From a virus: 64,000 bases of DNA. The position numbers and the translations under genes were made by a program. This document shows positions 14,221 through 45,107 of the stretch, piece by piece. A model generated the notes under the pieces. That model made no database searches and was not told the DNA's origin. It saw only the letters and a program-made list of their open reading frames with translations. Where the stretch lies: the IMG/VR virus record IMGVR_UViG_3300042434_002493, positions 1-64,000 of that record. One strand, given 5' to 3'. Position 1 is the stretch's first letter, and each line of letters begins with the position of its first letter.

Positions 14221-14245
14221 CCCGGCGGCGGGCATGGCGGATTCT
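14217..14245 (+). promoter_or_regulatory. Putative sigma70-like promoter
   Basis: TTGACC-N17-GATTCT upstream of GAGG RBS and ATG 14264. Confidence 0.35.
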
Positions 14246-14263
14246 CGCGGCGAGGTCTGCCCC

Positions 14264-17200
14264 ATGTTTTTCATCCGCATTGAAGGTCTGAAGGCCGAGC
14301 AACTGGCGCTTTTCGGCGGGGCAACACCCGCCTCGAAGCCCCGCCCGACGTCGGCGCCGGCCGGGCAGCTCGACCTCTTCGGAGGCGACCCGACCCACGG
14401 CGGCCACCTGGTCGAGCGCGTGATCTTCACCAAGGCGGGGCACCAGCAGACCTTCCACGTTCTGCCGGTCGAGGCGCCCAAGGCGAAGCGCAAGGCCAAG
14501 CCCGCCATCGGGCCCGACCTGTTCGCCTGGGCAGACCAGGCCACGCCGAGCCAGGTGGCGAGCGCCCTGGTGGACGCGCACCAGCAGGCGAAGCGTCCCG
14601 AGGCGACACCCGAGGACATCGAGCGCCGCGACCAGCTCCTCACGGCCGCGCAGGCACACCAGTCCAACCGGCAGAGCGAGTCGCCCGAGGTCGCGCCGCT
14701 GGCCGATCCGACACCGACTGCAACGCCGGCCGGCACCACGCCCGAAGATGCGCCGGCCGGTACGATCTTCCACGGATACACCTCCGATTACAGCACCCAG
14801 ATCCAGTGGGCGAAACGCGAGGACGGCCAGTGGTTCCGCCGCGGGCAGGACAAGACGCCGCGTGGATACCGCTGGAGCGGGTGGGTCAAGGGCGGCCCGC
14901 CGAACGAGCGCGCGAGCATCCACGGAAGCGGCAACGTAGGGCCCACGCGCATGGCCCGGCTTCCCCAGGAGGGGGGAGCCGACGAGGCCATGGCCGGGGC
15001 GAAGATCATCCCCAACCGCCACACCAAGACCGGCGAGGCGTTGTGGACGGTCCAACTTCAGGACCGTGTCAGCAGCGAGACCTACCAGGAGATCCTCGCC
15101 CACGCGAAGGGCCTGGGGGGCCGCTACAGCAGCTTCAGGGGCAACGGCGCGATCCCCGGCTTCATCTTCAAGACCGAGGACGCCGCCAGAGCGTTCACCG
15201 GCCAGCAGGCCGAAGAGGAGGAGCAGGAGGCCACCGAGCCGGCCGCGGTCAACCCTCCGGTTTCCCCGGAGAGTTCCCCGGCCGAGACGCCCGAGGCCAA
15301 GCCCGATGCCGTCACGCCGACCGCCGACCAGATCCGCAAGGACCCGACCGACGGTGGGCGCCTCCAACCTCGCAAGATCACCGGCAAGGACGGCGTCACC
15401 CGGACGTACTACGTCTCCCAGGACGTCGAGGGCGACGTGGCGGCCAAGCTCGCCGCCAATCCCGACTTCCAGCAGTCGGCCAAGGTCAACCACCGCGACA
15501 ACCTGGTGTTCGCGATCAAGAAGACGGTCGAGGACATGGCCGCCGACGAGGCCGTGGCCCGCAACGAGCTTGGGCACGCCGACGAGCACGCGAAGGGGTG
15601 GGGCCTGTTCTACTTCGACGGCCTCGACCAGATCGGACGCCAGAACTTTTTGGAGGCCGTCGCGAGCAAGCTCGCCCAGAGCGTGCGCGACCAGGAGCCG
15701 GCCAACCTCCCGAGCCGCGAGGCAGAGCCGGCGCAACTACCCGACCCGGTCGCAGAGCCCGCGGAGACCGTCAAGTACCTGGAGAGCGCGCCCGCAGGCG
15801 CCCAGGTGACGCTGGCCCACGACGACGGGCGGCACGTCTGGGAGAAGGGTGAGAAGGGGTGGCGCCCCGAGGGCGCCCCGGATGGCCCGCCCGTCACCGA
15901 CGAGGGCCTGGCGCGCGCCGCCCAGGCCGGCGCCGCGGAGATCGTGGACGGCCCTGCACCGGCGGATGCCGCCCCGCGGCGCACGCTCCAGGAATCCCTG
16001 GAGAGTTTCCGGCAGGGGCTCACGTTGACCGAGGACCAGGCCAAGGGAGACTGGACCCCCCAGCGCATGAGCCGCGCCCACCTGGTAACGAGCATCCTCG
16101 ACCACTTGTGGAGCGACAAGACCGGGCCCAGCGGAGAGCCGACCGACGACATGCAGGCCGCCATGACCCAGGCGGCCGAGGCCGAGGCCGACCGCATCAT
16201 CGCCGAGACGAAGAAGCCCAGGGTCGCGAAGCCCGAGGCTACTGCCAGCGGGCCCAAGGCCAACACCCAGAGCTTCGGCCGCGACCTCACCCCGAAGCAG
16301 CGCAAGGACGCCAACAGCTCCGCCGTCGAGATCATCCAGCGCGCCGTCAGCCAGGGCCGCGAGCTGACCCAGAAGGAGATGGACGAGGTCGCGCTCTACT
16401 CCGGCCGGGGTGGGATCGGCGACTCGCTCAACCAGTACTTCACGCGCCCGGACATCGCCGCGTCCATGTGGGATCTCCTCGCCCATCACGGCCTCGCGCC
16501 GGACGCAAAGGTGCTTGAGCCCGCGTGCGGTTCGGGCGTGTTTATGCAGACCGCCCCCGAGGGCGTGACCATGACCGCCGTGGAGATCGACCCCGAGGTG
16601 GCCCTGGTTGCGTCGAGCCTGCACGGAGCCCGGCACACGGTCCACGCCCAGAGCTTCGAGGAGTTCGCGGTGGCCCGCGAGCGAGGGGTGGGCGACCGCT
16701 TCGACGCGGTCATCACGAACGCGCCGTTCTGCACACGCACCGGCGACGGGGCCCGCATCCACAAGCCCGAGTACACGAGCGCCGACGCCTATTTCGTGGA
16801 CACGGCGCTCGACCAGGTGAAGGAGGGCGGTCTCGTTGCGATGATCGTCCACCGCGGCGTCATGTCGAACGACGGCATGCAGGAGTTCCGGCGCCGAATC
16901 GGAGATCGCGCCGAGCTGGTCGATGCGTTCCGGTTGCCCGTCGAGGCGTTCAAGCACGCCGACACCACCGTCGTTTCCGACGTGATCATCCTGCGGAAGC
17001 GCCCCGAGGTGGTCGCGACCGCGCTCGCCCGCGGCGGCGAGGAAGTCGGGCGAGCCCTCGGGGTGAACGACGAAGACCTCATCTACGGCCGCTGGTTCGA
17101 CGACAAGCCCGACCGCGTCCTGGGGACGGTCGGCAAGGACTGGCGCGGTTCGGATCTCGTCGAGGGCAGCGCCGACGCATGCGCGCCGCTCATCCGCGCC

Positions 17201-20200
17201 CGCGGGGTTGCATCGTGGGCGCACGGCCCGGCCGGCAAGACGATCACGGCCGAGGAGATGGCCGCGCACTCCGACGAGCGCGTGCGCGCCGCCCTGGACG
17301 CCGCGAAGGCCGACGTCGCGATTCCGACGCCGGTGCGCGGCAGCCAGACGGTGATCGCCGGGAAGACGTACATCCTCACCCCGGGCGAGAGCGGGGCCCT
17401 GCGCTGGCGCCGGCTCGACAGCATCGACGACGCACGCGAACTGCTGCACAGCGGAGACGCGGCCCTCAAGAGTGCCGGGGATCTTGCGCTGCGGTACGGG
17501 GATCTGCGCTCCGCGATGGCCCGAGGCGACTACCTGCGGGCCCGTGGCATCCGCCGCAAGCTCCAGAAGGACCTGAACGCCTGGGTCGAGAACTACGGCG
17601 TGCCCGCCAGGCACCCCGAGATCAACGCGCTCGCCGGCCAGGACGCGAACATCGCGCACCTGGTCGCCGCGGTGAATCCCGACAAGACGATGGCCGACAT
17701 CCTGACCTCGGACCCGGTCATCCCGCCCGCCGCCACCGGCGACCGGGCGGTCCCGGCGACGAGCGTCAGCGAGGCCGCCAGCCACCTCGCCACCCACAAT
17801 CCCGGCCAGCCGATCACGGTCGCCAAGCTCCGCGAAGCGTTCCCGAGCACGGCCGAGGACGATGAGATCGTCGCCGGCCTGGTGGAGAGCGGCGAGTACG
17901 TGGACGCCCGCGGGGCCTTCGGTGTCGAGAGCGACGCGCCTGGTGTCTTGCACGCGGACGACTACGCGAGCGGGGATCTCTTCGCTCTGCGCGACCACGA
18001 GTTCGAGCAGGCCGCGAGCGAGGACGACGCGACCCGCCAGCGCGCCGAGGCCCGCCTTGCCCTCGTGCAACGCCACATCGACGAGCGGTGGCGTCCGCTC
18101 GACCAGGTCGAGGTCTCCGTCCGCAGCGGGTGGATTCCGCCCCACGTCATCGAGGCGTGGCTCAACAGCCCCGACGTGATCGCCGACTGGCACAAGGCCA
18201 GTCAGTTCAAGGTCACGGAGGCCGGGGGCGTCTACACGGTCTCCTACTTCGACGAGGCCAAGGGCAAGCGCGTCAAGCACAGCGGAGAGCCGGACCACGT
18301 CCCCGCCCGCAACATCCTGCGCTACATGAACCGCCTACCCCTGCACGGAGAGCGAGCCCGCGACGAGGCCGAGGCTGAGGACGAGAAGTTCCGCTCGTGG
18401 CTCGCCTCTTCGGACCTCCGAGGGGACGTCGAGGAGATTTACAACCGCCGCTTCACCGGGCAGGTCCCGAGGCGTTTGAACAGCACGCCGATGAAGATCG
18501 ACGGGTTGCAGAAGGAGTTGTGGCCCTACCACTACGAACAGATCCGATGGAACACAGACCGCCGGGGCGGGATCGTCGCGATGGACGTCGGACTGGGCAA
18601 GACGTTCAACACCATCGCAACCGCGCGCCAGATGCGCGTCACAGGCCAGGCCCGCAAGGTGGCCGTCACCTGCCCGAAGTCGGTGATCATCAACTGGAGC
18701 AAGGAGATCGAGGACCTGCACCCGGGCGCGAAGGTCATGATCGTGGGGGCGACGAGCAAGGAGAAACCCAAGAAGACCTGGCGCGACCCCACCGTGCCCG
18801 AGTACGTGGCCGTCACCGACAACGACGAGACCTTGACGAAGAAGCTCGCCGACATCGCCGCCAACGACTACGACCTCGTTCTCTTCACCTACGAAGCGCA
18901 GGCCCGCATCCCCGTCCGCGACGACAACGTCACGCGCTTCGAGGGCGATGATTTCTGGTCTCGACGAGCGTCGAAGTTGAGCGACAGCGAGGCCACGGTC
19001 GCCCAGTCCGCCGAGACCCGCCAGAAGAAGCTCGCCCAGGCGCTCGCCTCCTACCAAGCCGAGCGCGCCAAGCTCGGTTTCAACGTGAAGCAGTCCATCA
19101 TCCACTGGGAGGATCTGGGCATCGACACGATGTTCGTGGACGAGGCCCACAACTTCGCCAACCTCGGGAGCCCGCGCTCCCGAGGAGGGCAGGTCAAGAT
19201 GATGGGGAGCAGCTCCGACAACGTGAAGCGGGCTCACGACCTGCAATTGAAGGCCGCTCTGGTGCGCGAGCGCCGCAAGCCCGACGAGACCGACGACGCC
19301 TACCAGCGCCGCATGGACGAGAACAAGGAGCAGGGCCTCGGCGTCAACGGCAACGGCGTCTTCATGCTGACCGCGACGCCTGCGAAGAACAGCCCGATGG
19401 ACGTCTACCACCTCATGCTCCAGGCCACCCCGCAGGTCTGGCGCGAGGTCGGCGTGCGCAACCTCGAAGAGTTCATCGACCGCTACGTGGACATCGAGGA
19501 GCGGCCGATCATCAACACCGAGCAGAAGGCCGAGATGGCGAACTGCGCGGTCGGATTCAAGAACCTCATCGAATTGCGCGCGGTCATGGAGCGCGGACTG
19601 AGGCGCCGCACCGCCAAAGAGGTCAACCTCAAGGTGCCGCAGACCGAGCGCGAGGAGCACCTCGTGGACATGACGCCGCAGCAGCACAAGGCGTTCCGCG
19701 ACATCCGCGACGAGTTCGAGCGCCGCAAGCTCGACAAGGACGAGCGGGTCGCCAATTCCGCGACCCTTTGGCTTCTGCACCAGCTCAACGCCGCCGGCAC
19801 CGATCTGTCCCTACTCTCCGATGAGCACCCAGAGCACGCGGGCGAGTGGCGGCACAGCCCGAAGTACCACGAGGCCGTGGGCACCATCGTGAAGAACCTC
19901 AAGAGCGGGCGTGGCGGCCAGGTCGTATTCATCGACCGCAACGCCAGCCACACGCACATGAAGAATCTCCTGGTGGAGGCAGGCATCCCCGAGAGCGAAA
20001 TCGAGATCCTGAACGCCACGACCGCGGCCGACGCGGACAAGCGGTACGCGGTCAGCGAACGCTTCAACCTGGGCAAGACCCGGGTCGTCATCGGGAACAC
20101 CGGGACGATGGGCGAGGGCGTCAACCTCCAGAAGAACACGAGCGATCTGCACCACCTCGACCTACCGTGGAGCCCCGGCAAGTACCACCAGCGCGAGGGC

Positions 20201-21391
20201 CGCGCCGTCCGACAAGGCAACAAGTACGGCAAGGTGCGGATTCACACCTACTTCTCGAAGCGCAGCTTCGACAGCTACCGCCACGCCATCTTGAGCGGCA
20301 AGCAGGGGTGGGTCTCGAACCTGTACAGCGGAGGCGATTACGCGGAGAACACCGAGGAGGGGGAGGACTTCAGCCCCGAAGAGTTGCAGATCATGTTGGC
20401 CGACGACCCCGACGAGGCCCGCAAGGTCTTCGAGGCGAACAAGGGGGCCCGCGTGGCCGCCCTCCAGGATGCGGCCCGCGCGAAGGCCATGCGCGACTGG
20501 CAGGGAGTCATCAAGCGCCGCAGCGCGCTGGCGAAGATGGCCGACAAGACCAGTCACGCGGCCCGGCGCCTCGAAGACACCATCCGCCTCGACACCGCGC
20601 GACTGAAGCGGGTGACGGAGTTGCCCAAGCCGCTGCGCGCCGCGCTCGACTCCGACCTCCCATGCGTCGCCGTGCCCACCACCGGGGCGATCATCAAGGT
20701 CGGCGACGTCATCCTCCCGAAGAACGGCAACGTGCTCGAAGACGCGCACGTCGTAACCGACGTGGACCCAGTCAAGGGCGCGGTCTCGATTCGACCGTTC
20801 GGCCGCAAGCGCCCCGCCTACTACGGCAAGCACACTCTCACAGCGGCCGAATTGCCGGCCTACGTCCACCACGAGGGCCCGGAGACGGAGGCGGACGCTT
20901 ACAGGCCGCAGGTCCGGGAGAAGCTCGCCGCTGCGGCGAAGTTCCCGACGCTGGCCGGGCACGACCTCGCAGAGATGCGAGACTGGCCGGAGGCGATCCG
21001 GCGCGAGTTCGAGCCCGAGGCCCGACAGATCGCCGCCGCCGCCGTCTCGCACGTCAACCCATACGGCCACGTTTTCGTGCGCCATGGCGACACAGTGAAG
21101 GCTGTCCGCGGCGACAGCCCGGAGGCCAAGAACGCCGCCCCCCTTCTACCGTGGGGCGAAGACCGCGAGGCCATCCTGCGGGGCCTGGTGACTCACCTGC
21201 GCACCGAGGGCAAGAAGCAGGTGGTCACGCAGGGCAAGCGCGGCTCCATGAATTACACCGGGCGCTACGAGTACCAGCCGAGCTACGAATGGAAAAATGC
21301 TCACGCCCGCGTCGTCGGCGGGCGGGGAGACGACTACGGGCTTGAGCAGGAGGCCATCAGGCGCATCCACCAGGAGGACCAGGCGAAATGA
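14264..21391 (+). CDS. DarB-like giant protein: N6-adenine DNA methyltransferase + SNF2 helicase, with tagged N-terminal extension
   Basis: LEPACGSG (~16514), NAPF (16718), DVGLGKT (18584), DEAH (19139), LTATP, GEGVNLQ, QREGRAVRQGN; tag copies at 14387 and 15341. Confidence 0.9.
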   Translation: MFFIRIEGLKAEQLALFGGATPASKPRPTSAPAGQLDLFGGDPTHGGHLVERVIFTKAGHQQTFHVLPVEAPKAKRKAKPAIGPDLFAWADQATPSQVASALVDAHQQAKRPEATPEDIERRDQLLTAAQAHQSNRQSESPEVAPLADPTPTATPAGTTPEDAPAGTIFHGYTSDYSTQIQWAKREDGQWFRRGQDKTPRGYRWSGWVKGGPPNERASIHGSGNVGPTRMARLPQEGGADEAMAGAKIIPNRHTKTGEALWTVQLQDRVSSETYQEILAHAKGLGGRYSSFRGNGAIPGFIFKTEDAARAFTGQQAEEEEQEATEPAAVNPPVSPESSPAETPEAKPDAVTPTADQIRKDPTDGGRLQPRKITGKDGVTRTYYVSQDVEGDVAAKLAANPDFQQSAKVNHRDNLVFAIKKTVEDMAADEAVARNELGHADEHAKGWGLFYFDGLDQIGRQNFLEAVASKLAQSVRDQEPANLPSREAEPAQLPDPVAEPAETVKYLESAPAGAQVTLAHDDGRHVWEKGEKGWRPEGAPDGPPVTDEGLARAAQAGAAEIVDGPAPADAAPRRTLQESLESFRQGLTLTEDQAKGDWTPQRMSRAHLVTSILDHLWSDKTGPSGEPTDDMQAAMTQAAEAEADRIIAETKKPRVAKPEATASGPKANTQSFGRDLTPKQRKDANSSAVEIIQRAVSQGRELTQKEMDEVALYSGRGGIGDSLNQYFTRPDIAASMWDLLAHHGLAPDAKVLEPACGSGVFMQTAPEGVTMTAVEIDPEVALVASSLHGARHTVHAQSFEEFAVARERGVGDRFDAVITNAPFCTRTGDGARIHKPEYTSADAYFVDTALDQVKEGGLVAMIVHRGVMSNDGMQEFRRRIGDRAELVDAFRLPVEAFKHADTTVVSDVIILRKRPEVVATALARGGEEVGRALGVNDEDLIYGRWFDDKPDRVLGTVGKDWRGSDLVEGSADACAPLIRARGVASWAHGPAGKTITAEEMAAHSDERVRAALDAAKADVAIPTPVRGSQTVIAGKTYILTPGESGALRWRRLDSIDDARELLHSGDAALKSAGDLALRYGDLRSAMARGDYLRARGIRRKLQKDLNAWVENYGVPARHPEINALAGQDANIAHLVAAVNPDKTMADILTSDPVIPPAATGDRAVPATSVSEAASHLATHNPGQPITVAKLREAFPSTAEDDEIVAGLVESGEYVDARGAFGVESDAPGVLHADDYASGDLFALRDHEFEQAASEDDATRQRAEARLALVQRHIDERWRPLDQVEVSVRSGWIPPHVIEAWLNSPDVIADWHKASQFKVTEAGGVYTVSYFDEAKGKRVKHSGEPDHVPARNILRYMNRLPLHGERARDEAEAEDEKFRSWLASSDLRGDVEEIYNRRFTGQVPRRLNSTPMKIDGLQKELWPYHYEQIRWNTDRRGGIVAMDVGLGKTFNTIATARQMRVTGQARKVAVTCPKSVIINWSKEIEDLHPGAKVMIVGATSKEKPKKTWRDPTVPEYVAVTDNDETLTKKLADIAANDYDLVLFTYEAQARIPVRDDNVTRFEGDDFWSRRASKLSDSEATVAQSAETRQKKLAQALASYQAERAKLGFNVKQSIIHWEDLGIDTMFVDEAHNFANLGSPRSRGGQVKMMGSSSDNVKRAHDLQLKAALVRERRKPDETDDAYQRRMDENKEQGLGVNGNGVFMLTATPAKNSPMDVYHLMLQATPQVWREVGVRNLEEFIDRYVDIEERPIINTEQKAEMANCAVGFKNLIELRAVMERGLRRRTAKEVNLKVPQTEREEHLVDMTPQQHKAFRDIRDEFERRKLDKDERVANSATLWLLHQLNAAGTDLSLLSDEHPEHAGEWRHSPKYHEAVGTIVKNLKSGRGGQVVFIDRNASHTHMKNLLVEAGIPESEIEILNATTAADADKRYAVSERFNLGKTRVVIGNTGTMGEGVNLQKNTSDLHHLDLPWSPGKYHQREGRAVRQGNKYGKVRIHTYFSKRSFDSYRHAILSGKQGWVSNLYSGGDYAENTEEGEDFSPEELQIMLADDPDEARKVFEANKGARVAALQDAARAKAMRDWQGVIKRRSALAKMADKTSHAARRLEDTIRLDTARLKRVTELPKPLRAALDSDLPCVAVPTTGAIIKVGDVILPKNGNVLEDAHVVTDVDPVKGAVSIRPFGRKRPAYYGKHTLTAAELPAYVHHEGPETEADAYRPQVREKLAAAAKFPTLAGHDLAEMRDWPEAIRREFEPEARQIAAAAVSHVNPYGHVFVRHGDTVKAVRGDSPEAKNAAPLLPWGEDREAILRGLVTHLRTEGKKQVVTQGKRGSMNYTGRYEYQPSYEWKNAHARVVGGRGDDYGLEQEAIRRIHQEDQAK

Positions 21392-21708
21392 CCCCCACGA
21401 AGGAGTCCGCGACCATCCTGGTGCAGATGCTTCAGACGCACCCGGCCTACTACCTGAACTTCGGGCCCTACTGGTGGATCGTGAAGCGGTGGTTGCTGCG
21501 CCTGGGGTTTACGCGCGCCAACACCCGCCACCTGGGAACGTACACGGACCCGCAGGCCCGCGCCTGGTACACCGACCGGCCGTTTCTCAGCGCCATCGAG
21601 CAGGCGTTCGCCTACCAGGCCGAGCGCGCCCAGAACTGCCCCGGCTCGCCGTTCTGCCAGACGCCAGACGGTGAGGACTACATCCTGGAAGACCAGGACG
21701 CCGAATGA
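21388..21708 (+). CDS. Hypothetical protein
   Basis: ATGA overlaps on both sides; aromatic-rich 106-aa product. Confidence 0.7.
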   Translation: MTPTKESATILVQMLQTHPAYYLNFGPYWWIVKRWLLRLGFTRANTRHLGTYTDPQARAWYTDRPFLSAIEQAFAYQAERAQNCPGSPFCQTPDGEDYILEDQDAE

Positions 21709-24700
21709 ACCCCGCCGCCCTGTTGCTCCAGCTCCAAGCCAACCGGGAAGCCGGCAAGGCCATCGACCGCAGCGACACCGCGACCGCATCCCTGCTTCCC
21801 GCGCTGGACGCCGCCGGTGACATCGACCACGGCGGGCGGCTCCACGCCGAGATGCGAACGGACAAGCGCGGGCGGACCCAGCATCGGCACGTCCGATGGG
21901 AGGAATTGAAGGGCGAAGACCTGGTTCACCAGGGCTACGTCAAGGCAGGCAGCCCCGCCGCGTTCGAGGCCCTGGGGGGGGACGAGTTCGCCGATCCGTC
22001 ATGCGCGCGGTGCGGGGCACGGATCAAGCACGCCTACCTGACCAACCACGGGCCCCTGGGGGGCGACTGCCTGGCGACGTTGACTGGCGACGACAGTTCG
22101 CGCGCCGCGGCGCGCCGGTTCGTGGAGAAGCTCGACAAGGCGCAGGACAGCGCCCACCGGAGCAAGCGTACCCTGGCCGTTCTGACACTCAGCTTCGACC
22201 AGCACGCCGGCCAGATTCGTGCCGACTTCCAGCTCACCAACGGCCGCCCGTGGTACGGCGCCGCTGGTGACGCTCGCCACGCGGTCATGTTCCACGCCGC
22301 CGCTTCCCAGTGGGCCGAGGCCCGAGGCTTGGAGGTGGACGAGCATCTCTCCGGGGACGAGAGCGCGCTCGCCGCCGCCAAGCGCATCGCCAGGGAGCGC
22401 CGGGCCGAGTTACAGGCCCGTGCCACCAGCAAGGCCGAGCAGGAAGTAGCCCGCATCCGCAGCGAGTCCCTCCGCCGCCTAGACGGCGTCCTGGCATTCC
22501 TGAAAGCGCCGCAGAACTACCGCCGGGCGCCCGTCGAAGCCGACTGGTTTTTCGGGCCCCTGAAAGCCCAGGCGGCAGACGCGATCCGAGAGCAGGTTGG
22601 CTTCCGCGTTCGCAGGTTCCGCAACAGTCGCGGCGACGAACTGACGGAGGTGTCCGCGCGTCAACAGGGGCGCGGCCCCATCGTCGGCATGTTCCCGCCC
22701 GACGACTACGACGACCTCATCGACCGAATCCAGAGCGCAGGCTTTGAGGTGGAGAGCCAGGAAGCCGCCAAGGCCCTGCCGCTCGACCCCCCGCCGCAGG
22801 TCCGCCGGCCGCAGGAGCACCACCACCACGGCAGCGTGAAGGTGCCGGGTCTGCCGACGGTGGACGTCGAGACGCCCGAGGGCACCGTGCGCCGGGGAAA
22901 GGGCAAGGACGGGGAGCCGTGGGCCGTGCTCATGCCCGCGCACTACGGCGAGTTTCGCGGCACGCTGGGCGTGGACGGCGACGCCGTGGACGTGTTCGTG
23001 GGCCCCGAGCGCGACGCGCCGACCGCGTGGGTCATCCGCGCGAAGGACCCGACGACAGGACGCTACGACGAGGACAAGGTCATGGTGGGGTTCGCCACCC
23101 GCACCGAGGCCATTCGCACCTTCCGCGCCTCGTACAACGTGCGCGGCGTGCTGGGCGAGGTCACGGGCGTCCCGGTCGCCCGTCTTGGGGCGCTCCTCGC
23201 CGATGCGAGGCACCGCGGTCTCCCGCTCAACATGCACAAGGCCGAGAGCCGCGAGCCGCCGCCGGCCGGGCCCGACTCTTCCCTGGACGACGCCTGGCGA
23301 CGCCTGGAGCATGTCCGCCAGCAGATCGCCGAGCTGGCCGACACGCACGAGGGGGGGAAAGCCATCGACAAGAAGGACACCGCCACCACGAGCATGTTCG
23401 ACCTCATGGGCGTGGGCGATCCGAGCCACGCCGGCCGACTTCACGAGGAGACCCGGACGGACGCGACCGGGCGCACCCAGAAGCGGTGGATCGCGTCGCA
23501 AGAGGCGGAGCCCGAAGGCACCATCCGGCATGGCGACCTTGTTTCGCGCCCCGCCACGGTGCGAAGTGAGCACGGCGAAATGATGGGCGGTTCTGGCAAC
23601 GCCTACACCCCAGACGGCGAGGCGTTGATCGCGCTCCCGCAACCGGGATTCGTGATCGGTGACGTGGAGATCGACGCAGCGCACCGTGGAAAGGGCCACG
23701 GACAGGCCCTCTATCTCCGGGCGATGGCCGAGCACGGGAGGCTCTACTCCTCGTGGCCAGTGAGTAAGGATGCGTTTCGCGTTCACGACGCCCTCGTCCG
23801 CAAGGGTCTGGCCACGCGCCGCAACGTCGAGACCGACGGCACCACGTTCACCGTTCTGGAGCCGACTGGGCAAGCCACGACGCCGCCCGAGGGTCTGGTG
23901 CAGATCGGCGAGCGAGCGCCCCGCGGGCGCGCGCCGACGCCCACGACCCCAGGCATGCGCGCCCAGGGCCGTCTCGACGGACTGGGCCACGAGCCGAGCC
24001 CGCCGCCGGCTCACCCCGAGCCGTCTCTGCGCGACTACGACACGATCCTGGTGAACAGCTCCGCCGGCAAAGACAGCCAGGCGATGCTCGACTACGTCGT
24101 CGCGAAGGCGCGCGCCGAGGGTGTGCTCGACCGCGTCGTCGTCGTGCATGCCGATCTGGGCAGGGTCGAATGGGAAGGCACACGCGAGCTGGCCGAGGCG
24201 CAGGCCAAGCACTACGGACTGCGCTTCGAGGTGGTGACGAAGACCAAGGGCGACCTCATCGAGCAGATCGACCAGCGCGCCGTGGACCTTCAGCAGCGCA
24301 GTCACGACGCGGCCACCCTCGCCGCGGCCGGGTTTCGCACTTGGGGCGATCTGGCGGGGGCGAGCGCCGAGACACTGGCCGGGCTGATCGGCAAGGCCCA
24401 GGCGGACGCAGCGCAGCCGACCGAGGAGCGAGCTGCCAAGCTCAAGCAGGCCGCAGAGCGCAAGCTCAAGGGCGGCAAGGCCGCGACAGACCCGGTGGAC
24501 TTCGGCAAGGAGATCGCGTGGCCGTCGAGCGCGTCGCGCTACTGCACCTCCGACCACAAGCGCGGTCCCATCCGCACGCTCATGACGCGCCTGACCAGCG
24601 AGTTCGACCGCAAGGGCGCGCCGGTGCGCATCCTGAACTGTATGGGCCTGCGGGGCGACGAGAGCAGCAACCGCGCCAAGATGCCGACGTTCGAGCACGA

Positions 24701-26234
24701 CGACGCGGCGAGCAACGGCAAGCGTCATGTGGACGAGTGGTTGCCGATCCACCACTGGAATGAGGGCGACGTCTGGCGCCGCATCCGCGACGCCGGCACC
24801 CCCTACCACGGCGCCTACGACCTCGGGATGCGCCGGCTTTCGTGCGTGTTCTGCGTGTTTGCCACCCGCGACGACCTGAAGATCGCCGCCCACGCCAACC
24901 CGGCCCTGTTCCGCGAGTATGTCGCCCTGGAGCGCCGCGTGGGGCACAAGTTCCGGGCGGACCTCGCGCTGGCCGAACTGCACGACGCGATGGCCGCGGA
25001 CGACGACCGCACCGAGGCATCGAAGGCCGCCGAGCAGATGCGCCTCTTCGGTGACCCGACCCACGGCGGCCACCTGCACGTCGAGGTCCGCACCGACAAG
25101 AGCGGCCGCACCGAGCGCCGCCACGTCCGCACCGGCTCGTTGCACACCGAGATGGGCCACGCGGGGGCGCCCGCGCCAGGCGAGCGCGGGCACATCACCC
25201 TCACGCCCGAGCGAGCCGAAGCCGAGCGCCGGGCCGGCAACATCATGGAGCACGTCGGGCGCATCTTCGACGGGGGCGAGGTACACCTCATCGAGGGCGC
25301 CATGCACGACGCCGGGCACACCCGAGAGTGGGCGCCGGACGAGAGCGGGGACGAAACTCCGTTGACCATTCGAGACGACGAGCTGCCCGGTCTGCTTGGG
25401 ATGCCCGAGTGGAGCCCGGAGGACGCCGCCGACGCTGTTGCTCTGGTTGCCGATTCAACCGCGCACGGTGGGGTCATGCCCGGCGCCGTCGTGCGCGAGG
25501 TATTGGCGGACGCCATCGCGCCGGCCGGCAAGCTGCGACTCGTCAACGTGTCGCTCGACGAGGCCCGCGACTTTGTCGCCAAGCACCACAGCCAGATGCC
25601 CGAGATGAACCCCCGCGGGCTGATCTACGCCGTGGGGTGCATGAAGGGCGGGCGCCTGGTGGCCGTCGCGACCGCCGGCACGCCGACCGGGCGATGGGGC
25701 AACGGGCGGGTGGACCCGCGCAACATTCTGGAGCTGACCCGCATCGCGTCCGACGGCACCACGAAGGGGGCGTCGTCGAAGCTCGCCGCGCGCATGATTG
25801 ACCTCCTCGACCGCTCCAAGCGGGGCGACGCCGATGCCCCCGCGCTGTTCGTGACATACAGCCTGGGGACCGAGGACGGCACGACCTACCGCGCGCTGCG
25901 AGAGAAAGGTCTGCGACCCGTGGCGCTGGTCCACGGCAAGGCCGCCGGTGGGGGCGGGGCCCGGTCAGGCAACCGCCTGGGATACGCCGAGCCCGACAAG
26001 ATCCGATGGGAGGCCGGCGCCGCGGCAGGCCCGGCCCGCTGGGATCTGCTCGAAGGCGCGAAGGCCGGACCCATCGCCAACGCCCCCGGCACTGATCCGC
26101 TACTTCCGCCCGACGAGGCTGCCAAGAGCTTCGGCGTCGTCGTCGCGTTCAAGGCCATCGACGAGGCAGATCGGGCAATGGCCCGAGGTACTGCTCCAGG
26201 TCGCCCTGCGGTTCAAGTAGCCGCGGGCGATTGA
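21705..26234 (+). CDS. Polyvalent multi-enzyme protein: unknown Cys domain + inorganic pyrophosphatase-like + GNAT + PAPS-reductase-like + Mom/XF1762-like acyltransferase; three tag copies
   Basis: HYGEFRGTLGVDGDAVDVFVG...YDEDKVMVGF (InPase); HRGKGHGQALY (GNAT); SAGKDS...RYCT...GLRGDES...RLSCVFC (PAPS reductase); EARDFVAKHH...LELTR...VTYS...GTTYRA (Mom/XF1762-like). Confidence 0.85.
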   Translation: MNPAALLLQLQANREAGKAIDRSDTATASLLPALDAAGDIDHGGRLHAEMRTDKRGRTQHRHVRWEELKGEDLVHQGYVKAGSPAAFEALGGDEFADPSCARCGARIKHAYLTNHGPLGGDCLATLTGDDSSRAAARRFVEKLDKAQDSAHRSKRTLAVLTLSFDQHAGQIRADFQLTNGRPWYGAAGDARHAVMFHAAASQWAEARGLEVDEHLSGDESALAAAKRIARERRAELQARATSKAEQEVARIRSESLRRLDGVLAFLKAPQNYRRAPVEADWFFGPLKAQAADAIREQVGFRVRRFRNSRGDELTEVSARQQGRGPIVGMFPPDDYDDLIDRIQSAGFEVESQEAAKALPLDPPPQVRRPQEHHHHGSVKVPGLPTVDVETPEGTVRRGKGKDGEPWAVLMPAHYGEFRGTLGVDGDAVDVFVGPERDAPTAWVIRAKDPTTGRYDEDKVMVGFATRTEAIRTFRASYNVRGVLGEVTGVPVARLGALLADARHRGLPLNMHKAESREPPPAGPDSSLDDAWRRLEHVRQQIAELADTHEGGKAIDKKDTATTSMFDLMGVGDPSHAGRLHEETRTDATGRTQKRWIASQEAEPEGTIRHGDLVSRPATVRSEHGEMMGGSGNAYTPDGEALIALPQPGFVIGDVEIDAAHRGKGHGQALYLRAMAEHGRLYSSWPVSKDAFRVHDALVRKGLATRRNVETDGTTFTVLEPTGQATTPPEGLVQIGERAPRGRAPTPTTPGMRAQGRLDGLGHEPSPPPAHPEPSLRDYDTILVNSSAGKDSQAMLDYVVAKARAEGVLDRVVVVHADLGRVEWEGTRELAEAQAKHYGLRFEVVTKTKGDLIEQIDQRAVDLQQRSHDAATLAAAGFRTWGDLAGASAETLAGLIGKAQADAAQPTEERAAKLKQAAERKLKGGKAATDPVDFGKEIAWPSSASRYCTSDHKRGPIRTLMTRLTSEFDRKGAPVRILNCMGLRGDESSNRAKMPTFEHDDAASNGKRHVDEWLPIHHWNEGDVWRRIRDAGTPYHGAYDLGMRRLSCVFCVFATRDDLKIAAHANPALFREYVALERRVGHKFRADLALAELHDAMAADDDRTEASKAAEQMRLFGDPTHGGHLHVEVRTDKSGRTERRHVRTGSLHTEMGHAGAPAPGERGHITLTPERAEAERRAGNIMEHVGRIFDGGEVHLIEGAMHDAGHTREWAPDESGDETPLTIRDDELPGLLGMPEWSPEDAADAVALVADSTAHGGVMPGAVVREVLADAIAPAGKLRLVNVSLDEARDFVAKHHSQMPEMNPRGLIYAVGCMKGGRLVAVATAGTPTGRWGNGRVDPRNILELTRIASDGTTKGASSKLAARMIDLLDRSKRGDADAPALFVTYSLGTEDGTTYRALREKGLRPVALVHGKAAGGGGARSGNRLGYAEPDKIRWEAGAAAGPARWDLLEGAKAGPIANAPGTDPLLPPDEAAKSFGVVVAFKAIDEADRAMARGTAPGRPAVQVAAGD

Positions 26235-26265: not shown

Positions 26266-29200
26266 ATGGCCCAGCCCGCGCAGCTCAACATTTTCGGCGG
26301 TCAAGATCCCATCCGCAACGGCGGCGATCCTTCGCACGGCGGGGCCCTTCACCAGGAGCGGCGCACCGACAGCCGAGGAAGGACCGAGACGAAGTGGGTC
26401 CGTGACCCCAACGACCGACGCACCGTGGACTTGGAGAAGCTGATCGCACTCAAGGAAATGGGCCGCCGGGTGGACCGGCCGACCCTGTTCCGGTGGGCAG
26501 CCGGCCGGGTGAAGCACGACCCGGACACCTGGACGGCCTACCGCAAGTCCACAGCCGAGGAGACCCGCCAGGAAGGCGAGCAAGAACTGCGTCGCCGGTA
26601 CGCCTGGCATCAGACGTTCGGCGAGCACACGCCGTTTCACCCCGCAGCGATGAGCGATCACATCACCGGCAGCTTCGAGGCGGAGGCCGCGAAGGCCGTC
26701 ACGTTCTACCTCGCCGTGATCTTCGCCGAGGGTGGCAAGGCCGGCCCCATCGCCAACCGGCCGGGCCTGGTATTCGACTACATGAGCCGCCGTTGGAAGC
26801 GGGTCGAGCCCCACGAGGAGGGCGTTCACCTCGACGAAGAGGCCGGGCAGGCTCACGTCGTCCCTTGGAAGCCGAAGCGCGACAAGAATGAGACGATGAG
26901 CCAGGAGGACTGGCAGGGCTTCATCGACGACGCGAACGAGCCACTCCACGAGCGGGCCGCGAAAATGAACGCCACACTGGCGCACTACAAGGCGGGGCAC
27001 CTGGAGTTCAAGAACCCCAGGGGCGACGGCCACGCGGTCATCATCCCGGATGCGAGCGAGCCGGGCCGCTGGCGTTACTCCGAGTACGACAAGAGTGGTT
27101 TCTCATCGCACACGACTCACGACACCCCAATGCAGGCCGCCGCCGCCGCCGGGGAGGCCGGTTTCACCGAGCCGGCGCCCGGCAGCCTGGATCGGCTTTC
27201 GCAGACCGAGGAGTGGGATCGCGGGACTCGCTCCGCCAAGATCAACCAGCTTGGCGGAGAACTGAACTGGAAGGGGCACCACGAGGCCGACCTGGCGGTG
27301 CGCAATCACTACGCCCGCCACGGCTGGAGCGCCGAAGCCTACCAGCGCATCATGCAGCCCGACGTCCTGGCCGCCGTCCGCGCCGGCCAGGTGCATCCCG
27401 AACTGCTCAAGGCCATCGCCGATCACCGCGAGGGTTTCAAGGCCGCGCCGAAGCTAGACTTCGGCGAGACGGCCCCGTCCGGCGAGCGGTGGATTACCGT
27501 CCGCCCCAACGGACCCGACGCCAAGGGTGTCCCGGTCCTGGTGCAGGTCCACCCCCACAACCCGCGCCAGGGCCACATCATCGGCGGCGCCGGGGGCAAG
27601 ATGAACCTGCGCCGGCTCAACCTCAAGACCCCGGAGGAGTACCGGGCCGCCGCCGCCGCGCGACGCAAGAACCGACGCAAGAGCGAGAGCACGCAGGTTG
27701 ACACAGGCCAGAGGGCCGCGCTCGAAGAGGTCAAGGGCGAGCACCAACAGCGCCGCAGGGCCGCCGCCGCCCAGGTACTCCGCCACGCCGGGCATCACGA
27801 GCTGGCCGACAAGATCGCCGCCGGCCCGCTGGCAGGCCAGGAGAGCGAGCACAAGGAGGCCGTCGCCGACGGCTACCGCAAGGTTCGCGTGCTCATGGCC
27901 AACGCCCGCCGAACGCTCGCCCAGGACACCGACGCCCGCGAGGCCGCAGGTCTGGGGGAGCTTCCGGCGACGAGCGGAGACGGGGGAATCGGGGCGAGCG
28001 ACATCGCCGGCAGGCAGGTCATGCAGGGGGGCCTCGACTACAAGCGCGACCGGGCCGCCCTGAGCGACCAACAGGCCGATCTCGCCCGCGCCCAGGCCCT
28101 TCGCTCGCGCCTGGACGCCGATCTGCAACACGGCGAGCCCATCGACGCGCTCACCACAGCGCAGCGGTACGCCCGCGCCGCGAACCTTACCCACCGCGAC
28201 ATCGAGGCCGCGGGCCCCGTCGAGATCGCCGCGTTCGCCCGGCTGGCCAGCCGGCGCCTGAAAGCGTTCCGGCGGCTCCAGGAGGCCGTCACCGAGGCCG
28301 GCGGGGACAACACCGCGCCCACCATGCCCGACGAGGCTCGCGAGGCGATGGACGACATGGCCGCGGTCGTCAGCGGCAGCGGGCAGGATGCCATCGACGC
28401 CATGACCGATCCCGCGCGGAACGAAACCGCGCGCAAGGGACTACAGGCCGCCGTGGACCACGGCCTCATGGACCCGCAGCGCGAGCGGGACATGACGGCC
28501 CGTATCGAGCAGGCGCGCCGACAGTCCGCCGGGGCTCCCGAGCTTTCGCAGCTCAACCAGGAGCACGTCGAGTCTCTCCCGGCCCGCGCCATCGCCATCG
28601 TGGCCAACGACGCCGCGCACGCGATCCGCCGCATGCGCACCGCGGCCCCCGAGGATCTGCGCAAGCTCGCCGAGCAGGTGGGCGAGGAGGTGCCGACCAT
28701 CAAGGGCGCCGCCGATGCGCTCGGCGAAGAGGCCCTGATCTCCGGCGAAGCCACCGACGCACAGCGCCGCTCGTTCTTGCGCCAGGCGCTCGCGTCCGGC
28801 GTGCTCACCGGCGACGCCACACCGCCGAAGGCTGCCGCCGATCCGTCCCTCGAAGTGAACGACGGGGCAAAGGCCCGCGCGATCTTCGAGGCCGGGTTGA
28901 AGGTCAAGGGTCTCGACAAGGAGGCCCGGCGCCGCCGCAACGCCATCATGGCCGGAGACCTGGCGGGCGCCGCCTCGCAACAGTGGGAGGCCCCCCGCGG
29001 CGGAGCCAACGACCCGACGCAGCAGCTCGCCGACCACCCTTCGACCGAGATGGTCGCCGCGGTGCAAGGCGAGGTCCGCACCCAGCGCGCCCGCGCGTTT
29101 CTGGGGCAGGTCAATCAGACCTACCAGGACATCGGCCAGATGCTCGACGAGGACCAGGACGCGGCGCACGCCGATCTGGGCCGCCACATGAGCCGGGGCA

Positions 29201-32200
29201 GCTTCGACGCGGTCAACCACCACGCTCAAGAGATCCTGCGCAGCGCGACCATCGACCGCAACGTCGTAGACCTCCTCGGTTCGGAGGGGGCCGCACAACT
29301 CCTCGCTTGGCAGATCCGTCAGACGCACCCGGAGCAGGCCGAGGCATTGACGCAGGCGGTCGGCGACTATCACCTGCGCCTCCAGGACACCCACATCCCC
29401 GAGGCGATGGACACCTCGCGCGACGCCTACGAGGCCGCCCACGAGGTTCACCAGGGCATGCAGGAGCAGGGCGACCTGCGCGAGTGGCAGGCGCTCAACC
29501 GCCAGCGCATCGAGCACCTCGACCAGTCGCGGCAAACGCTGGGCCGGACCTTGGGTTACCTGGAAACGTCCGCGGCTTTGCACGCCGCGATGCTTTCGCC
29601 GGCAGCGCACCCGATCCGCGTCTCCGCCGGGCCGGTCGATGCGACGCAGCTCGCAGCCCACGCGCGCGCCGCCGGACTCGGAGACGACGACTTCCACATC
29701 GAGCACGACGGCAAGAACGGGTGGTTGACGGTGCAGCCGGCAGCGTTCGGCAAACTTGTCCGCCCGGTCGATGCCGAAGAGGTCCGCCTCGACCGTGACA
29801 TGGAGGCCATCCGCACGGGCCAGCAGGACGACCCGACGTGGCGCCCGGCCGGGTTTATGCAGCGCACCGACGTCCGCCCCGAGCAGCGTTTCAAGGGTGA
29901 GGTCCCGCAGAACGCGCAGCCCTTCGACTACGGACTCGCCGAGCACGCGAACATGCACGAGGCGATGGGCACCTACATCGCCCAGCGCGTCCACGACGGG
30001 TGGCGGCCCGTGGACATCATGCGCGATCTCCAGAACACCGGCGAGCACATGGGCGGCATCGCCGCGGGGGTCGGCGAGGCCGACCTCCAGAGCCCGCAGG
30101 TGCAGGCGTGGCAGGAGTTGCACCCCGAGCCGCCGAAGACCGTGGCAGCCCAGGACGACGGGCAGGCGCGAATGCCCTGGGACCCCGAGCCCGAGCCCGG
30201 ACCCAACCCCGCCCACGCCAGTTGGGAGCAGGACCGGCGCGAGATCGCGGCCAAGGGCAAGCTTGCCGCGTTCCACGAGGCTTTGGCCGCCCACATGCCA
30301 TCGAGAGCGCAGGACAAGAATCAGAGCCTCCAGCAGGCCGAGGAGCACGCCCCGCACTTCATGGAGCTGGCCAGGCAGCACGCCGAGCGGGTGGGCACAG
30401 CGGGGACGTTGCACCACCAGCAACTCGACCCGACGTTGGCGAATGACCTCGCCTTTCGGGTGCTGGGCCGGCACCCGGCCGCGGTGGGCGCGTGGAAGCC
30501 CGTCGAACAGTTGGGCCACCACGAGCGCGCCGCTTTGCGCGAGTCGTTCTACCGCTACTTCCACAGCCGACAGGGGGAGATGCCGCAGGAGCTTCACCCC
30601 GAGGCCGTCATGGCAAAGTGGGCGAGCAAGAACCCGGAGCCGGCCCGCGACAACACCGCGCAGGGCGATCTCCTCGGTTTCGGCAGTCTCCCCGGCATGG
30701 GGGGATTCGGCGCGCCGTCGCCGGAGGACATCGAAGCCGCCGAGGCCGAAGCTGGCCACGCGCACGAGCGATGGGAACAAGCCCTCGTTGAGCACGAGCG
30801 CGCCCAGGCGGGCATCGCCGATCCCAAGGCCGCGTTTCTCTCCCAGGCGAAAGAGCACGTCGAAAGCGTCGCCCGCCACCTGGCCAAGACGACGAAGACG
30901 CACAACGACGACGCCCACCCCGAGGTCGCCGCGGCCCGGGAACGACACAGGCACGCGCAGGACGTGGCCGCGTTGCGCGCCGAGCCCGACGCGGCCACGC
31001 CCGACGCGCTCCGCGCAGCGCACGGAGCCTACCGATCCGCCACAGGTGCGGCTCAGAGCGCCGTCGTGCAGTTGGCGCGAGCCGAAGACGCGCGGAGCCG
31101 CTCCGCCGCGCAGGCGTTCGATGCCCGTCACCACGACGCGAGCCCGGAGTGGAAGGCGTGGCGCAAGGAGCGCGACGAAGCCGAGCGCGCCGCACACCGG
31201 GCAGCCTCGCGCTACGACGCCCCCGACTGGAACACCTACGTCGCCAGCCACGGCGGCGCGCCGCAGGCGTACCAGGCGCTTCAGGATTTCGTGCGCTCCC
31301 GGTTCGTGCAGGAGTTCCGCACGCTCTACCAGGACCACGCCCAGAGCCCGCTCCAGATCGGCGTGCAGGCGGTGGCCGGCGCCGCAGGCCACCGCCTCGC
31401 CTTCGACCCAGACTGGCGCGACCGTGTGCGCCGCACCGCCAACGCAGCCGGCGCGACCGCGCGCACACGCGCAGCCGGCGGGCGGTTCAGTTCGGACCCG
31501 TACAAGGAGGCGCGCGAGCGGTTCCAGGCCCAGGCCCGCGAGATGGCCAATCGACAGACCAGCAACGTGGGCGAGGTCAATCCCGATCCGCGGCGAGCGC
31601 CCGACCTGGACGAGCGATACACCCTCGGGCAGGCCGCCGAGGGCCAGCTCGCCAACATCGTCGGGCAGCACGCGAGCATCATCGACCCGAGGCAGACGTT
31701 CGAGGCTCGCTCCGCTGACTTTTCGGGGCCGGGCGCCAAGCGGCAGCGCGCGATCAAGGCGTGGAAGCGCAGCCGCAAGATCGGGATGTTCCTCGGGACG
31801 GGCCAGGGCAAGACGACCGTCGCGTTCGGCACCTTCGCCGACCTCAAAGGCGAGGGCCGGGTCCAGCGGGGCGTGTTCGCCGTGCCCAGCATCGTGCAGG
31901 GCCAGTTCGGAGGCGAGGCGTTGTCCTTTGTGGACCCCGCCCACATGCGCTGGCACGCGAAGCCCGGCGAGGGCAAGGCCGAGCGCATGGCCGCCTACGC
32001 CGACCCGGAGAAGCACGTTGTCGTCGTGACGCACCAGGCGCTTCGCGACGACGTCACCGAGATGGTCGCGAAGCACCTCGGGATGAGCCGCGAGCAGGTC
32101 GCCGCACACATGACGGACGGCGAGGTGCAAGCCCAGGCGCCGGAGGTCCCCCACCTCGACAAGATGCGCGACCTGGCGAGGATCACGCCCGAGCAGATGC

Positions 32201-40374: not shown

Positions 40375-40659
40375 ATGCGCCGTCGCAACCCGCCACCGCC
40401 GGCAGCCGCCTCGACCGCCGACGACTGGCAGCGCATCTCTCTCACCGTCGAGTCGGACGATCAGCGAGCGTTCACCCTGGATGCCGCCGCGGCCCTGGAC
40501 GAGGATGGCGACCCGAAGGCACGCATCGAATACAGCGGGGGCACCTACAACGCTCCCGACGATTTCACGACCGCGGGCACCACGCTGACGTGGGCCGGAA
40601 CGATTCCCCTGGTTGTGGGGGAGTCGTTGACCCTCTGGATTGTGCCGCAGCGCACATAA
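40375..40659 (+). CDS. Small beta-rich structural protein
   Basis: DDFTTAGTTLTW...VGESLTLW resembles the C-terminal domain type of the next gene. Confidence 0.55.
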   Translation: MRRRNPPPPAAASTADDWQRISLTVESDDQRAFTLDAAAALDEDGDPKARIEYSGGTYNAPDDFTTAGTTLTWAGTIPLVVGESLTLWIVPQRT

Positions 40660-40678
40660 CAAGCACAGGAGAAGGAAC

Positions 40679-44818: not shown

Positions 44819-45105
44819 GCCGCCTCACCCGCGCCATCGGCGCCGCCATCCTGCTTGGGGTCCAGGGCACCCCTCTGCGCCGCCCCGTGGAGACCCGCGC
44901 GTCCCTGGGCCCGCCCGTCGAGGGCCCGCCCACGGGCCGATGCACCTGCGGGGCGGAGATGCTCCCGGCCGAGACTGTCAACGAGCAGGACCCGCGGGCG
45001 TCTCTGGCCGCCTGTGGCGTCGTGCGGTGCCCGAACTGCGGCATGGTGGGGACCGCGCCGGACATCCGCCCGGACGTCGTCGCCGCCCTGCGCCGGGGGA
45101 TCTGA
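44815..45105 (+). CDS. Small zinc-ribbon protein
   Basis: GTGA overlap with the upstream stop; CTCG...CPNCG. Confidence 0.55.
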   Translation: MSRLTRAIGAAILLGVQGTPLRRPVETRASLGPPVEGPPTGRCTCGAEMLPAETVNEQDPRASLAACGVVRCPNCGMVGTAPDIRPDVVAALRRGI

Positions 45106-45107
45106 CC

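Follow-up and report, generated by a model that had tools for sequence, protein, structure and literature searches.

What is a single open reading frame that encodes several unrelated effector domains doing among the head genes of a phage? The question is raised by positions 21705-26234 (plus strand) of a provirus from IMG/VR (record IMGVR_UViG_3300042434_002493; 80,435 bp, estimated to be 93% complete, about 70% G+C). We analyzed the first 64 kb of this record, which we will call the window, and all positions are those of the window. An earlier reading of this DNA, made without database searches (the sequence-only reading), had proposed that the open reading frame (ORF) encodes a virus-style polyprotein that is cut into separately tagged anti-restriction or DNA-modifying enzymes. 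The ORF is indeed a single coding frame, for a protein of 1509 amino acids, and its G+C content at third codon positions (GC3) is 0.87. Judging from sequence comparisons, we consider it probable, with reservations that we give below, that the protein is a phage-type polyvalent head cargo, that it belongs to an anti-restriction block similar to the Dar system of phage P1, and that it is processed by the prohead protease.

Four observations together make a protease-processed cargo polyprotein the best reading of the ORF: its position in the head block, the presence of its tag and its Lys-Ala motif in other head-block proteins, the shuffling of its modules among relatives, and a relative in which the genes are split. 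They also bear out, in part, the tagged polyprotein of the sequence-only reading; its cleavage we infer, as we do its loading, its ejection, and all of its enzyme activities. In our proposal, the precursor would be loaded into the procapsid, and a gp21-type prohead protease would cut after the lysine in E-x-x-K↓A/S (the arrow marks the predicted cut). Cutting would remove a leader of 18 residues and free four main pieces and two short C-terminal peptides. The main pieces would be a Cys-ribbon module; an InPase; a GNAT joined to a PP-loop enzyme of the PAPS-reductase type; and a Mom-type enzyme. After cutting, three of these four pieces would begin with a tag of about 40 residues. At infection, the pieces would be ejected along with the DNA to work at an early stage; their most likely targets would be the DNA itself as it enters, or the defenses of the host. 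The InPase might also drive adenylation by the PP-loop enzyme forward by removing pyrophosphate. This is plausible, and removal of pyrophosphate by the InPase of polyvalent proteins is a general suggestion of Iyer, Burroughs, Anand, de Souza, and Aravind (2017; PMC5512222).

The predicted parts of the protein are as follows.

21705-21758, plus strand: leader, residues 1-18, ending in E-A-G-K (motif at residues 15-18); predicted to be removed
21759-22772, plus strand: piece 1, residues 19-356, 37 kDa; tag copy 1, a Cys3 ribbon, and an orphan region
22773-23360, plus strand: piece 2, residues 357-552, 21 kDa; InPase, untagged
23361-25025, plus strand: piece 3, residues 553-1107, 60.5 kDa; tag copy 2, a probable GNAT, and a PAPS-reductase-type domain
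25026-26063, plus strand: piece 4, residues 1108-1453, 36.7 kDa; Q-M-R-L-F and tag copy 3, a helical region, and a Mom-type domain of the GNAT fold
26064-26231, plus strand: remnant of a second tag type (A-G-P-I-A-N-A-P-G, residues 1454-1474) and a hydrophobic, strand-like tail (residues 1475-1509)

The protein has at least two unrelated effector domains. Family models (Pfam, PHROGs, and NCBIfam) and fold comparison place an InPase, a PAPS reductase, and a Mom-type domain where the sequence-only reading had put them, and a GNAT is probable. The InPase family (PF18823) matches residues 372-494 (nucleotides 22818-23186) with E = 3e-31 and 108.5 bits (threshold 26.8), over model positions 8-130 of 135. 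A solved phage portal (9b41) has a C-terminal domain that this region matches as well (7.6e-15). The protein's sole DarB-like PHROG match covers the InPase region as well (residues 274-491), and no P1-type record that would make the protein a homolog of the P1 Dar proteins is among the tblastn matches listed. The PAPS reductase family (PF01507) matches at 57.6 bits (gathering threshold 22.5), and phrog_424 matches residues 777-1103 (nucleotides 24033-25013; E = 3.6e-37). This domain has an intact PP-loop, S-A-G-K-D-S, at residues 786-791, and four cysteines at positions 947, 979, 1047, and 1050.

In piece 4, the family match is nearly full-length and the best fold match is Mu Mom, yet the scores are below both curated cut-offs. 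NCBIfam's NF045478 (XF1762) matches residues 1279-1435, or positions 2-142 of a model of 143, with E = 3.9e-12 and 46.2 bits (cut-off 50). Pfam's Mom family (PF25680) reaches 12.9 bits (cut-off 27.1), and phrog_1384 ("Mom-like") matches at 2.7e-9. A PDB sequence search with a profile of the module found nothing; Mom was reached by fold search. We used an AlphaFold2 (AF2) model of the module (mce9dc5fab909), which was built from an alignment of nine sequences and has a predicted local distance difference test score (pLDDT) of 71.5. Its best match in the PDB by Foldseek (a comparison that the sequence-only reading had suggested) is Mu Mom (8bv8; E = 1.8e-6, VIA Z = 13.3, root-mean-square deviation [rmsd] of 4.1), with 171 residues aligned at 11% identity. 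The extra N-terminal helices are also covered (model residues 4-301). Ordinary acetyltransferases come after Mom, with Z of 10-11.8. Going by the model, piece 4 carries a Mom-type GNAT fold.

The small GNAT in piece 3 (residues ~600-740) is probable and weakly supported. Acetyltransf_1 (PF00583) matches over motif A, R-G-K-G-H-G, and 13 of the 30 nearest protein-atlas clusters in a feature search carry GNAT families (scores of 0.92-0.93). These results agree with the GNAT of the sequence-only reading, and the Pfam match is below threshold (15.4 bits, threshold 20.7; E = 0.023). As for the Cys domain that the same reading had seen in piece 1, it is real as a Cys3 ribbon (C100, C103, and C122), which is conserved in two metagenomic proteins (P0069 and P0070; 50-56% identity). 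The rest of this module of 338 residues is an orphan: we found no relatives beyond the ribbon, which is the only part that P0069 and P0070, both partial, share with it. Two other assignments for residues 66-356 were rejected: the match to Pfam's SIP is at the chance level, and a protein-atlas lead to DUF6011 scored only 0.84 and gave nothing usable.

We did not find the fused architecture in any phage GenBank record (blastn and tblastn gave single-domain matches only), and the tag together with the Mom-type module had no tblastn match at 1e-3 in the phage GenBank collection.

The ORF sits among the virion and packaging genes of the window, between the portal gene and the genes for the protease, scaffold, and capsid. 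(Once genes are filtered by GC3, nearly all of those left in the window are on the plus strand.)

3910-5805, plus strand: large terminase (phrog_675, 2e-60)
6365-8215, plus strand: portal (phrog_11117, 1.4e-18), with an E-A-G-K↓S site 25 residues before the C-terminus
8217-9476, plus strand: 419-residue protein after the portal, MuF-like by motif alone
9473-12754, plus strand: 1093-residue protein rich in Ala, Lys, and Glu, with a tagged N-terminus and no family match
12796-13971, plus strand: tagged P-loop kinase (phrog_16619, "minor head protein," 4.7e-17; phrog_505, 1.6e-7)
14234-21391, plus strand: DarB-like methylase-helicase of 2385 residues (N6_Mtase and SNF2; phrog_10089, 2.7e-87)
21388-21708, plus strand: Ulx-like gene, 106 residues (phrog_1629, 4.2e-11)
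21705-26234, plus strand: the multi-enzyme ORF
26266-34761, plus strand: helicase-bearing giant of 2831 residues, with a tagged N-terminus
35643-36674, plus strand: candidate prohead protease of 343 residues, from the fold of its AF2 model
36689-37498, plus strand: scaffold-like protein with four motif sites
37537-39024, plus strand: major capsid protein (phrog_752, 2.5e-24), with E-Q-G-L-K↓A after residue 26

ATGA overlaps link the DarB-like gene, the Ulx-like gene, and the multi-enzyme ORF, a sign that these three genes form one translationally coupled operon.

Is the machinery for cutting such a precursor present? The 343-residue protein has no family match (Pfam, PHROGs, or NCBIfam), but its AF2 model (from an alignment of 11 sequences; core pLDDT of about 80) matches the gp21 protease of phage T4 (5jbl) with Foldseek E = 7.9e-4, VIA Z = 10.4, and rmsd of 3.2, over 143 of 165 residues. 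Herpesvirus assemblins are next in the fold ranking (Z ≤ 7.0). Five residues (H118, S120, H169, S187, and H214) are invariant in 11 homologs, which also have conserved C-terminal E..K and P-E-D-L-E-G-A-K sites. From this model, we predict that the protein is a gp21-type prohead protease and the processing enzyme. With a gp21-fold protein encoded nearby, a candidate for the enzyme that a polyprotein needs is present, adjacent, and of the right kind.

The putative cut sites have a recognizable form. The motif E-[GAEQ]-[GALTS]-K has 23 matches in 11 head-block proteins (10,482 residues), almost always before Ala or Ser; if the residues are shuffled, there are 4.4 ± 2.0 matches, with a maximum of 10 in 500 shuffles. 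We defined the motif after seeing the data, so this excess is inflated, by how much we cannot say. There is only one match in 14 other phage proteins (5,984 residues). The placement of the motif is a stronger argument than its enrichment. The scaffold-like protein (which has no match in Pfam, PHROGs, or NCBIfam) has E-G-A-K↓A, E-G-T-K↓A, E-G-A-K↓S, and E-G-G-K↓C. Two more sites are in the disordered C-terminal tail of the protease, and the motif is also found in the tail of the portal and in the leaders of cargo proteins. The capsid protein's site is a related form of five residues. In the 1509-residue protein, all six sites (K18, K356, K552, K1107, K1453, and K1474) lie between domain envelopes, which fits the sequence-only reading, where cut sites were placed at domain boundaries; the cuts themselves are predictions. 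Finally, the sites are conserved. A related contig (L005) keeps the scaffold (4/4), protease, and capsid sites, and the N-terminal sequence of its capsid protein is identical. The two sites in the protease's tail are conserved in homologs down to 29% identity.

The tag is also shared across the head block. Its core, H-G-G-x-L-H-x-E-x-R-T-D-x-x-G-R-T-x-x-R-x-V, is present in six copies in the window, plus a degenerate seventh. Three copies are within the multi-enzyme ORF (cores at nucleotides 21840, 23439, and 25074); three others head the 1093-residue protein, the kinase, and the 2831-residue giant; and the DarB-like protein contains the degenerate one. The tag is absent from the tail genes and from the other genes of the window. 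The sequence-only reading had most pieces keeping their own tag, and pieces 1, 3, and 4 do have one.

When we compared a profile of 11 tags to 1.84 billion cluster representatives, only 43 proteins matched at E ≤ 1e-3. (We disregarded five of the matches, P0021, P0025, P0036, P0047, and P0056, as unrelated repeat proteins.) Many proteins of the tag family have a short hydrophobic leader that ends in E-A-L-K↓A, often Q-L-G-L-F-G, the tag, and then varied cargo: Mom-type domains (P0014, P0015, P0018, and P0024), an adenine methylase (P0019), a zincin with an InPase (P0018), or DarB-like giants (P0029). Low-GC members keep L-I-K↓A followed by D-P-S-H-G-G.

Relatives of the protein show which of its parts can be exchanged. 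Our scans of IMG/VR turned up only one related contig. P0002 is 92% identical where it aligns and P0003 (on contig L004) is 87% identical. Both keep the 18-residue leader, even though the module behind it differs, and a similar hydrophobic C-terminal tail, and they differ in between. P0003 lacks piece 1, the ends of the deletion coinciding exactly with two successive K↓A joints; it also has an extra tagged module of ~480 residues, which is inserted after the PAPS-reductase unit and before the Mom unit. In P0002, neither the GNAT nor the Mom unit is present. In both proteins, the second tag type, A-G-P-I-A-N (A-G-P-I-A-N-x-P-G in P0003), heads a further module.

More distant relatives place the same units in other settings. 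In P0004 and P0005, PAPS-reductase and InPase units are fused to a MuF-type N-terminus, and in P0007 and P0009, a PAPS-reductase unit is joined to a DdrB-type ParB domain (PF18763). Relatives also carry LPD3 and MuF_C domains. Between their domains, P0004 and P0005 have the peptide G-G-P-x-I-G-P-R-G-G-x-W-x-D-x-x-H-T-I-P-W, often after E-Q-L-D-L-F; this recurring peptide (in short, G-P-x-I-G-P-R-G-G-x-W) may be a distant analog of the tag. Also, DarB-like giants with an Eco57I methylase and an SNF2 helicase can have a Mom-type gene (41-47% identity) just downstream, which stands alone and has no tag. These loci are in Myxococcota and in one metagenome-assembled genome (MAG) that is labeled as Alphaproteobacteria (L007, 9869-10957; L008, 3290-10957; L011, 45-10759), and one of them also has a ParA-like gene. 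They suggest that Mom-type and DarB-type proteins are partners on other mobile elements too.

A cultured phage, Bordetella phage vB_BbrM_PHB04 (NC_047861), has a similar head block (L014; record positions 18956-39176). As in the window, there are a portal, cargo genes, a DarB-like methylase, a Ulx-like gene, a giant helicase, a protease, a scaffold, and a capsid protein. In contrast to the window, PHB04 has small individual genes for the InPase (169 residues), an HD hydrolase, and a Ser/Thr phosphatase, and it lacks the PAPS-reductase and Mom-type units. The InPase, the HD hydrolase, the methylase, and the helicase have hydrophobic leaders ending in L-K↓A or T-K↓A. A basic hairpin, whose sequence differs from that of the window's tag, comes after the leader in the HD hydrolase and the methylase. 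The capsid protein, the tail of the portal, and the scaffold have Q-K↓A or G-K↓S sites, and the capsid's site, E-L-Q-K↓A, is in the corresponding region. As far as sequences can tell, PHB04 has the unfused state of the same system.

Several points weigh against our proposal, besides the definition of the cut-site motif after the fact. Mu Mom works late, in the cell that produces the phage, and is not injected. The InPase piece has no tag, and the GNAT is below threshold in family models. The sequence-only reading had brought in DndC, the PAPS-reductase-fold protein of phosphorothioation, and this link is unsupported: among NCBIfam matches at E ≤ 0.01 there are general APS/PAPS-reductase models but no DndC model. 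The remaining two points concern the tag. If the precursor enters the procapsid whole, then repeating the tag inside it is not needed for loading. And P0004 and P0005 repeat another short motif between their domains, although the MuF fusion should ensure loading, so such peptides may serve something besides loading. Together, these two points make a role for the tag after cleavage (in retention, in ejection, or in docking on DNA or a sliding clamp) a serious alternative.

One form of this alternative is that the tag serves mainly as an address once the pieces have been ejected. Cutting would leave a Q-L-x-L-F-like peptide and a basic hairpin exposed at the new N-terminus, and these would dock the enzymes on the host's sliding clamp or on DNA. 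Such a role is compatible with cleavage and competes only with the idea of a loading tag. Peptides of this kind separate the K↓A site from the core of the tag at three places in the window, as well as in proteins of the tag family.

14294-14458: Q-L-A-L-F and Q-L-D-L-F, in the DarB-like protein
25026-25050: A-E-Q-M-R-L-F, in piece 4
26266-26300: at the start of the 2831-residue giant

They resemble the pentapeptide by which bacterial proteins bind the sliding clamp. The pattern Q[LM]x[LIM]F is found at most 45 residues upstream of the tag core for 12 of 49 tags, as compared to 21 of 897 background windows. In composition, the tags are rich in His and mildly basic, and the peptides of the MuF-fused relatives recur at each unit where loading is already provided for. 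However, copies 1 and 2 of the 1509-residue protein's tag have only loose versions of the pentapeptide, and the low-GC members of the tag family lack it. We view an address as the tag's main function as possible but somewhat doubtful. We are considerably more doubtful about a fuller scheme, in which a cassette of an E-x-x-K leader or linker, a Q-L-x-L-F-like peptide, and a basic hairpin (D-P-S-H-G-G-x-L...R-W-V) would load any enzyme, the protease's cut would expose an N-terminus that docks on the sliding clamp or the entering DNA, and the Mom-type and PAPS-reductase-type units would modify the arriving genome processively.

A processed cargo need not be a kit for modifying DNA. The Mom-type and GNAT units might acylate host proteins or small molecules, and the PP-loop enzyme and the InPase might act on nucleotides or other signals of host defense. 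GNAT-fold enzymes have many kinds of substrates, and the structures that match the Mom-type model next after Mu Mom are ordinary acetyltransferases. Iyer et al. suggest that the InPase may target nucleotides of the infection response and that GNATs of polyvalent proteins modify proteins (PMC5512222). We saw no partners DndA, DndD, or DndE among the genes of the window that were scanned (the search was not exhaustive), and there was no DndC-specific match in NCBIfam at E ≤ 0.01. But Mu Mom is the single best structural match, including the extra helices. The coupling of the ORF to anti-restriction genes of the DarB-like and Ulx-like kinds in one operon, the Mom-type fold, the DarB-like neighbors of Mom-type genes in Myxococcota, and the fusions to ParB domains lead us to favor a role in anti-restriction at the level of DNA. 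Also, PAPS-reductase-fold enzymes make phosphorothioate DNA in the Dnd and Ssp systems, and one that a phage encodes is reported to help in evading Dnd (cited second-hand, through PMC13551039). Targets other than DNA seem to us possible but less likely.

Another explanation is that the cargo is packaged but stays whole, with at most its leader removed, and that the internal E-x-x-K↓A sites and tags are joints from past fusions of separate tagged genes that have been kept as linkers or as points of recombination. Some polyvalent proteins are delivered at full length, such as the virion RNA polymerase of phage N4 and TraC1 (PMC5512222), and DarB of P1 is packaged as a protein of 250 kDa (PMC9024508). 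Dispersed DNA repeats over the tag-coding parts of the window (27-79 nucleotides, 71-96% identity) could drive the exchange of cassettes, and in PHB04 the genes are separate. However, the full motif, from E at P4 through K at P1 to a small P1' residue, is kept as well at the internal sites as at those in the scaffold and the protease. The conservation of the internal sites spans the relatives at 87-92% identity and distant members of the tag family, while relics would be expected to drift. And accessible sites that share a shell with the protease would normally be cut. We consider uncut cargo unlikely.

Finally, although packaging is a prediction, it is very improbable that this is an ordinary cytoplasmic protein whose gene is in the head block by chance, given that its tag and cut motif are shared with structural proteins and the DarB-like cargo, that InPase units are fused to portals (including the solved portal 9b41), and that the gene order matches that of PHB04 and the Dar genes of P1.

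How does a processed head cargo of this kind compare to known systems? Cargo proteins with several enzymes already have names (polyvalent proteins, and Dar in P1), and the polyprotein toolkit of the sequence-only reading belongs with them. Polyvalent proteins likewise have their genes among those of the virion and bring several unrelated effector domains together in a single chain; the InPase was defined in the survey of these proteins as a domain specific to their phage type, and those that carry it are predicted to be virion cargo (PMC5512222). The DdrB-type ParB, LPD3, and MuF_C domains of relatives belong to the same set. Delivery with the DNA and processing are predicted for them as well. 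In contrast to the protein studied here, the survey of polyvalent proteins mentions neither PAPS-reductase nor Mom domains. It proposes that they process themselves with a zincin-like domain, and Pfam finds no such peptidase domain in the 1509-residue protein. It also has no shared tag and no E-x-x-K↓A grammar linked to a prohead protease.

The Dar system of P1 (DarB, Ulx, DdrA/B, DarA, and Hdf; PMC9024508) provides a second comparison. As in P1, DarB-like and Ulx-like genes are present, here directly upstream in the operon. The Dar proteins are loaded into heads and are thought to enter the cell; in our phage, loading is a prediction. P1 has no counterpart of the multi-enzyme ORF. DarB of P1 has an N-terminal signal for targeting to the capsid, and the authors looked for a signal common to the Dar proteins without finding one (PMC9024508), whereas here one tag is on all of the giant cargo proteins.

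The predicted cutting resembles that of T4 gp21, with its capsid-targeting sequences, and of the ejection proteins of phiKZ and SPN3US (PMC5694885, PMC10052503). The protease has the gp21 fold, a motif is common to scaffold, capsid, protease, and cargo, and a short leader ends at the cut site. There are two differences: gp21 cuts after Glu, and we predict cuts after Lys (E-x-x-K↓A/S); and T4's cargo consists of small internal proteins, whereas here it is a chain of enzymes whose tags are predicted to stay on the mature pieces. The Mom-type unit differs from its relative as well, in that Mu Mom is a late cytoplasmic enzyme and this domain is fused into a predicted virion cargo. What sets the protein apart is a new set of units (the PAPS-reductase and Mom types), the lack of a zincin domain for self-processing, and an explicit, shared cassette of cut site and tag. 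We found no paper that describes this cassette in the open-access full-text literature.

We also examined the neighboring head-block genes. The protein encoded at 8217-9476 has no family match (Pfam, PHROGs, or NCBIfam), and the MuF-type N-termini of P0004 and P0005 contain its C-terminal C-x-x-C ... H-P-N-x-x-C motif as well. From this motif, it is probably a MuF-like head protein. At the start of the 1093-residue protein are a helical leader, E-G-A-K↓A, and the tag; in a homolog, P0016, the two tag types are found together. The 1093-residue protein is possibly scaffold-like or internal to the head. The kinase is similar to zeta toxins or polynucleotide kinases. Its tag is right at the N-terminus, it has E-G-G-K↓A 16 residues before the C-terminus, and we predict that it is another cargo enzyme. 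The 2831-residue giant opens directly with Q-L-N-I-F and the tag, and at about residue 158 the second tag type (A-G-P-I-A-N-R-P-G) comes after an E-G-G-K↓A site. Its sole recognized domain is a helicase C-terminal domain (residues ~2200-2574), and more than 2000 residues have no assignment. Farther downstream, the structural genes at 40640-42469 and 44940-45827 (both plus strand) have sub-threshold Pfam matches to Decapeptide repeat (37.3 bits, cut-off 45) and DUF4815 (19.7 bits, cut-off 30), respectively. Their products, probably tail or fiber proteins, have no cut-site motif.

The host is probably a myxobacterium. Untagged homologs of the Mom-type domain are found in MAGs of Nannocystis and of other Myxococcota (as well as in one MAG labeled as Alphaproteobacteria and in one from Solirubrobacterales), and the G+C content of these MAGs is like that of the window. 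This assignment comes from matching sequences and composition.

Because PHB04 is cultured, it makes the cut-site grammar testable now and is a practical model for the whole system. If the cuts and the delivery are as we propose, then the anti-restriction cargo of phage heads would extend well beyond DarB types to a Mom-type adenine modifier and a PAPS-reductase-type enzyme. The cut site and the tag would form a readable grammar for predicting which phage proteins go into the head, at what positions they are processed, and what units can be exchanged. This grammar would help to annotate the giant "hypothetical" proteins of head blocks and to design the delivery of proteins by phage particles. 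Such delivery would also suggest that Mom-type enzymes, unlike Mu Mom, can be injected and act early in infection.

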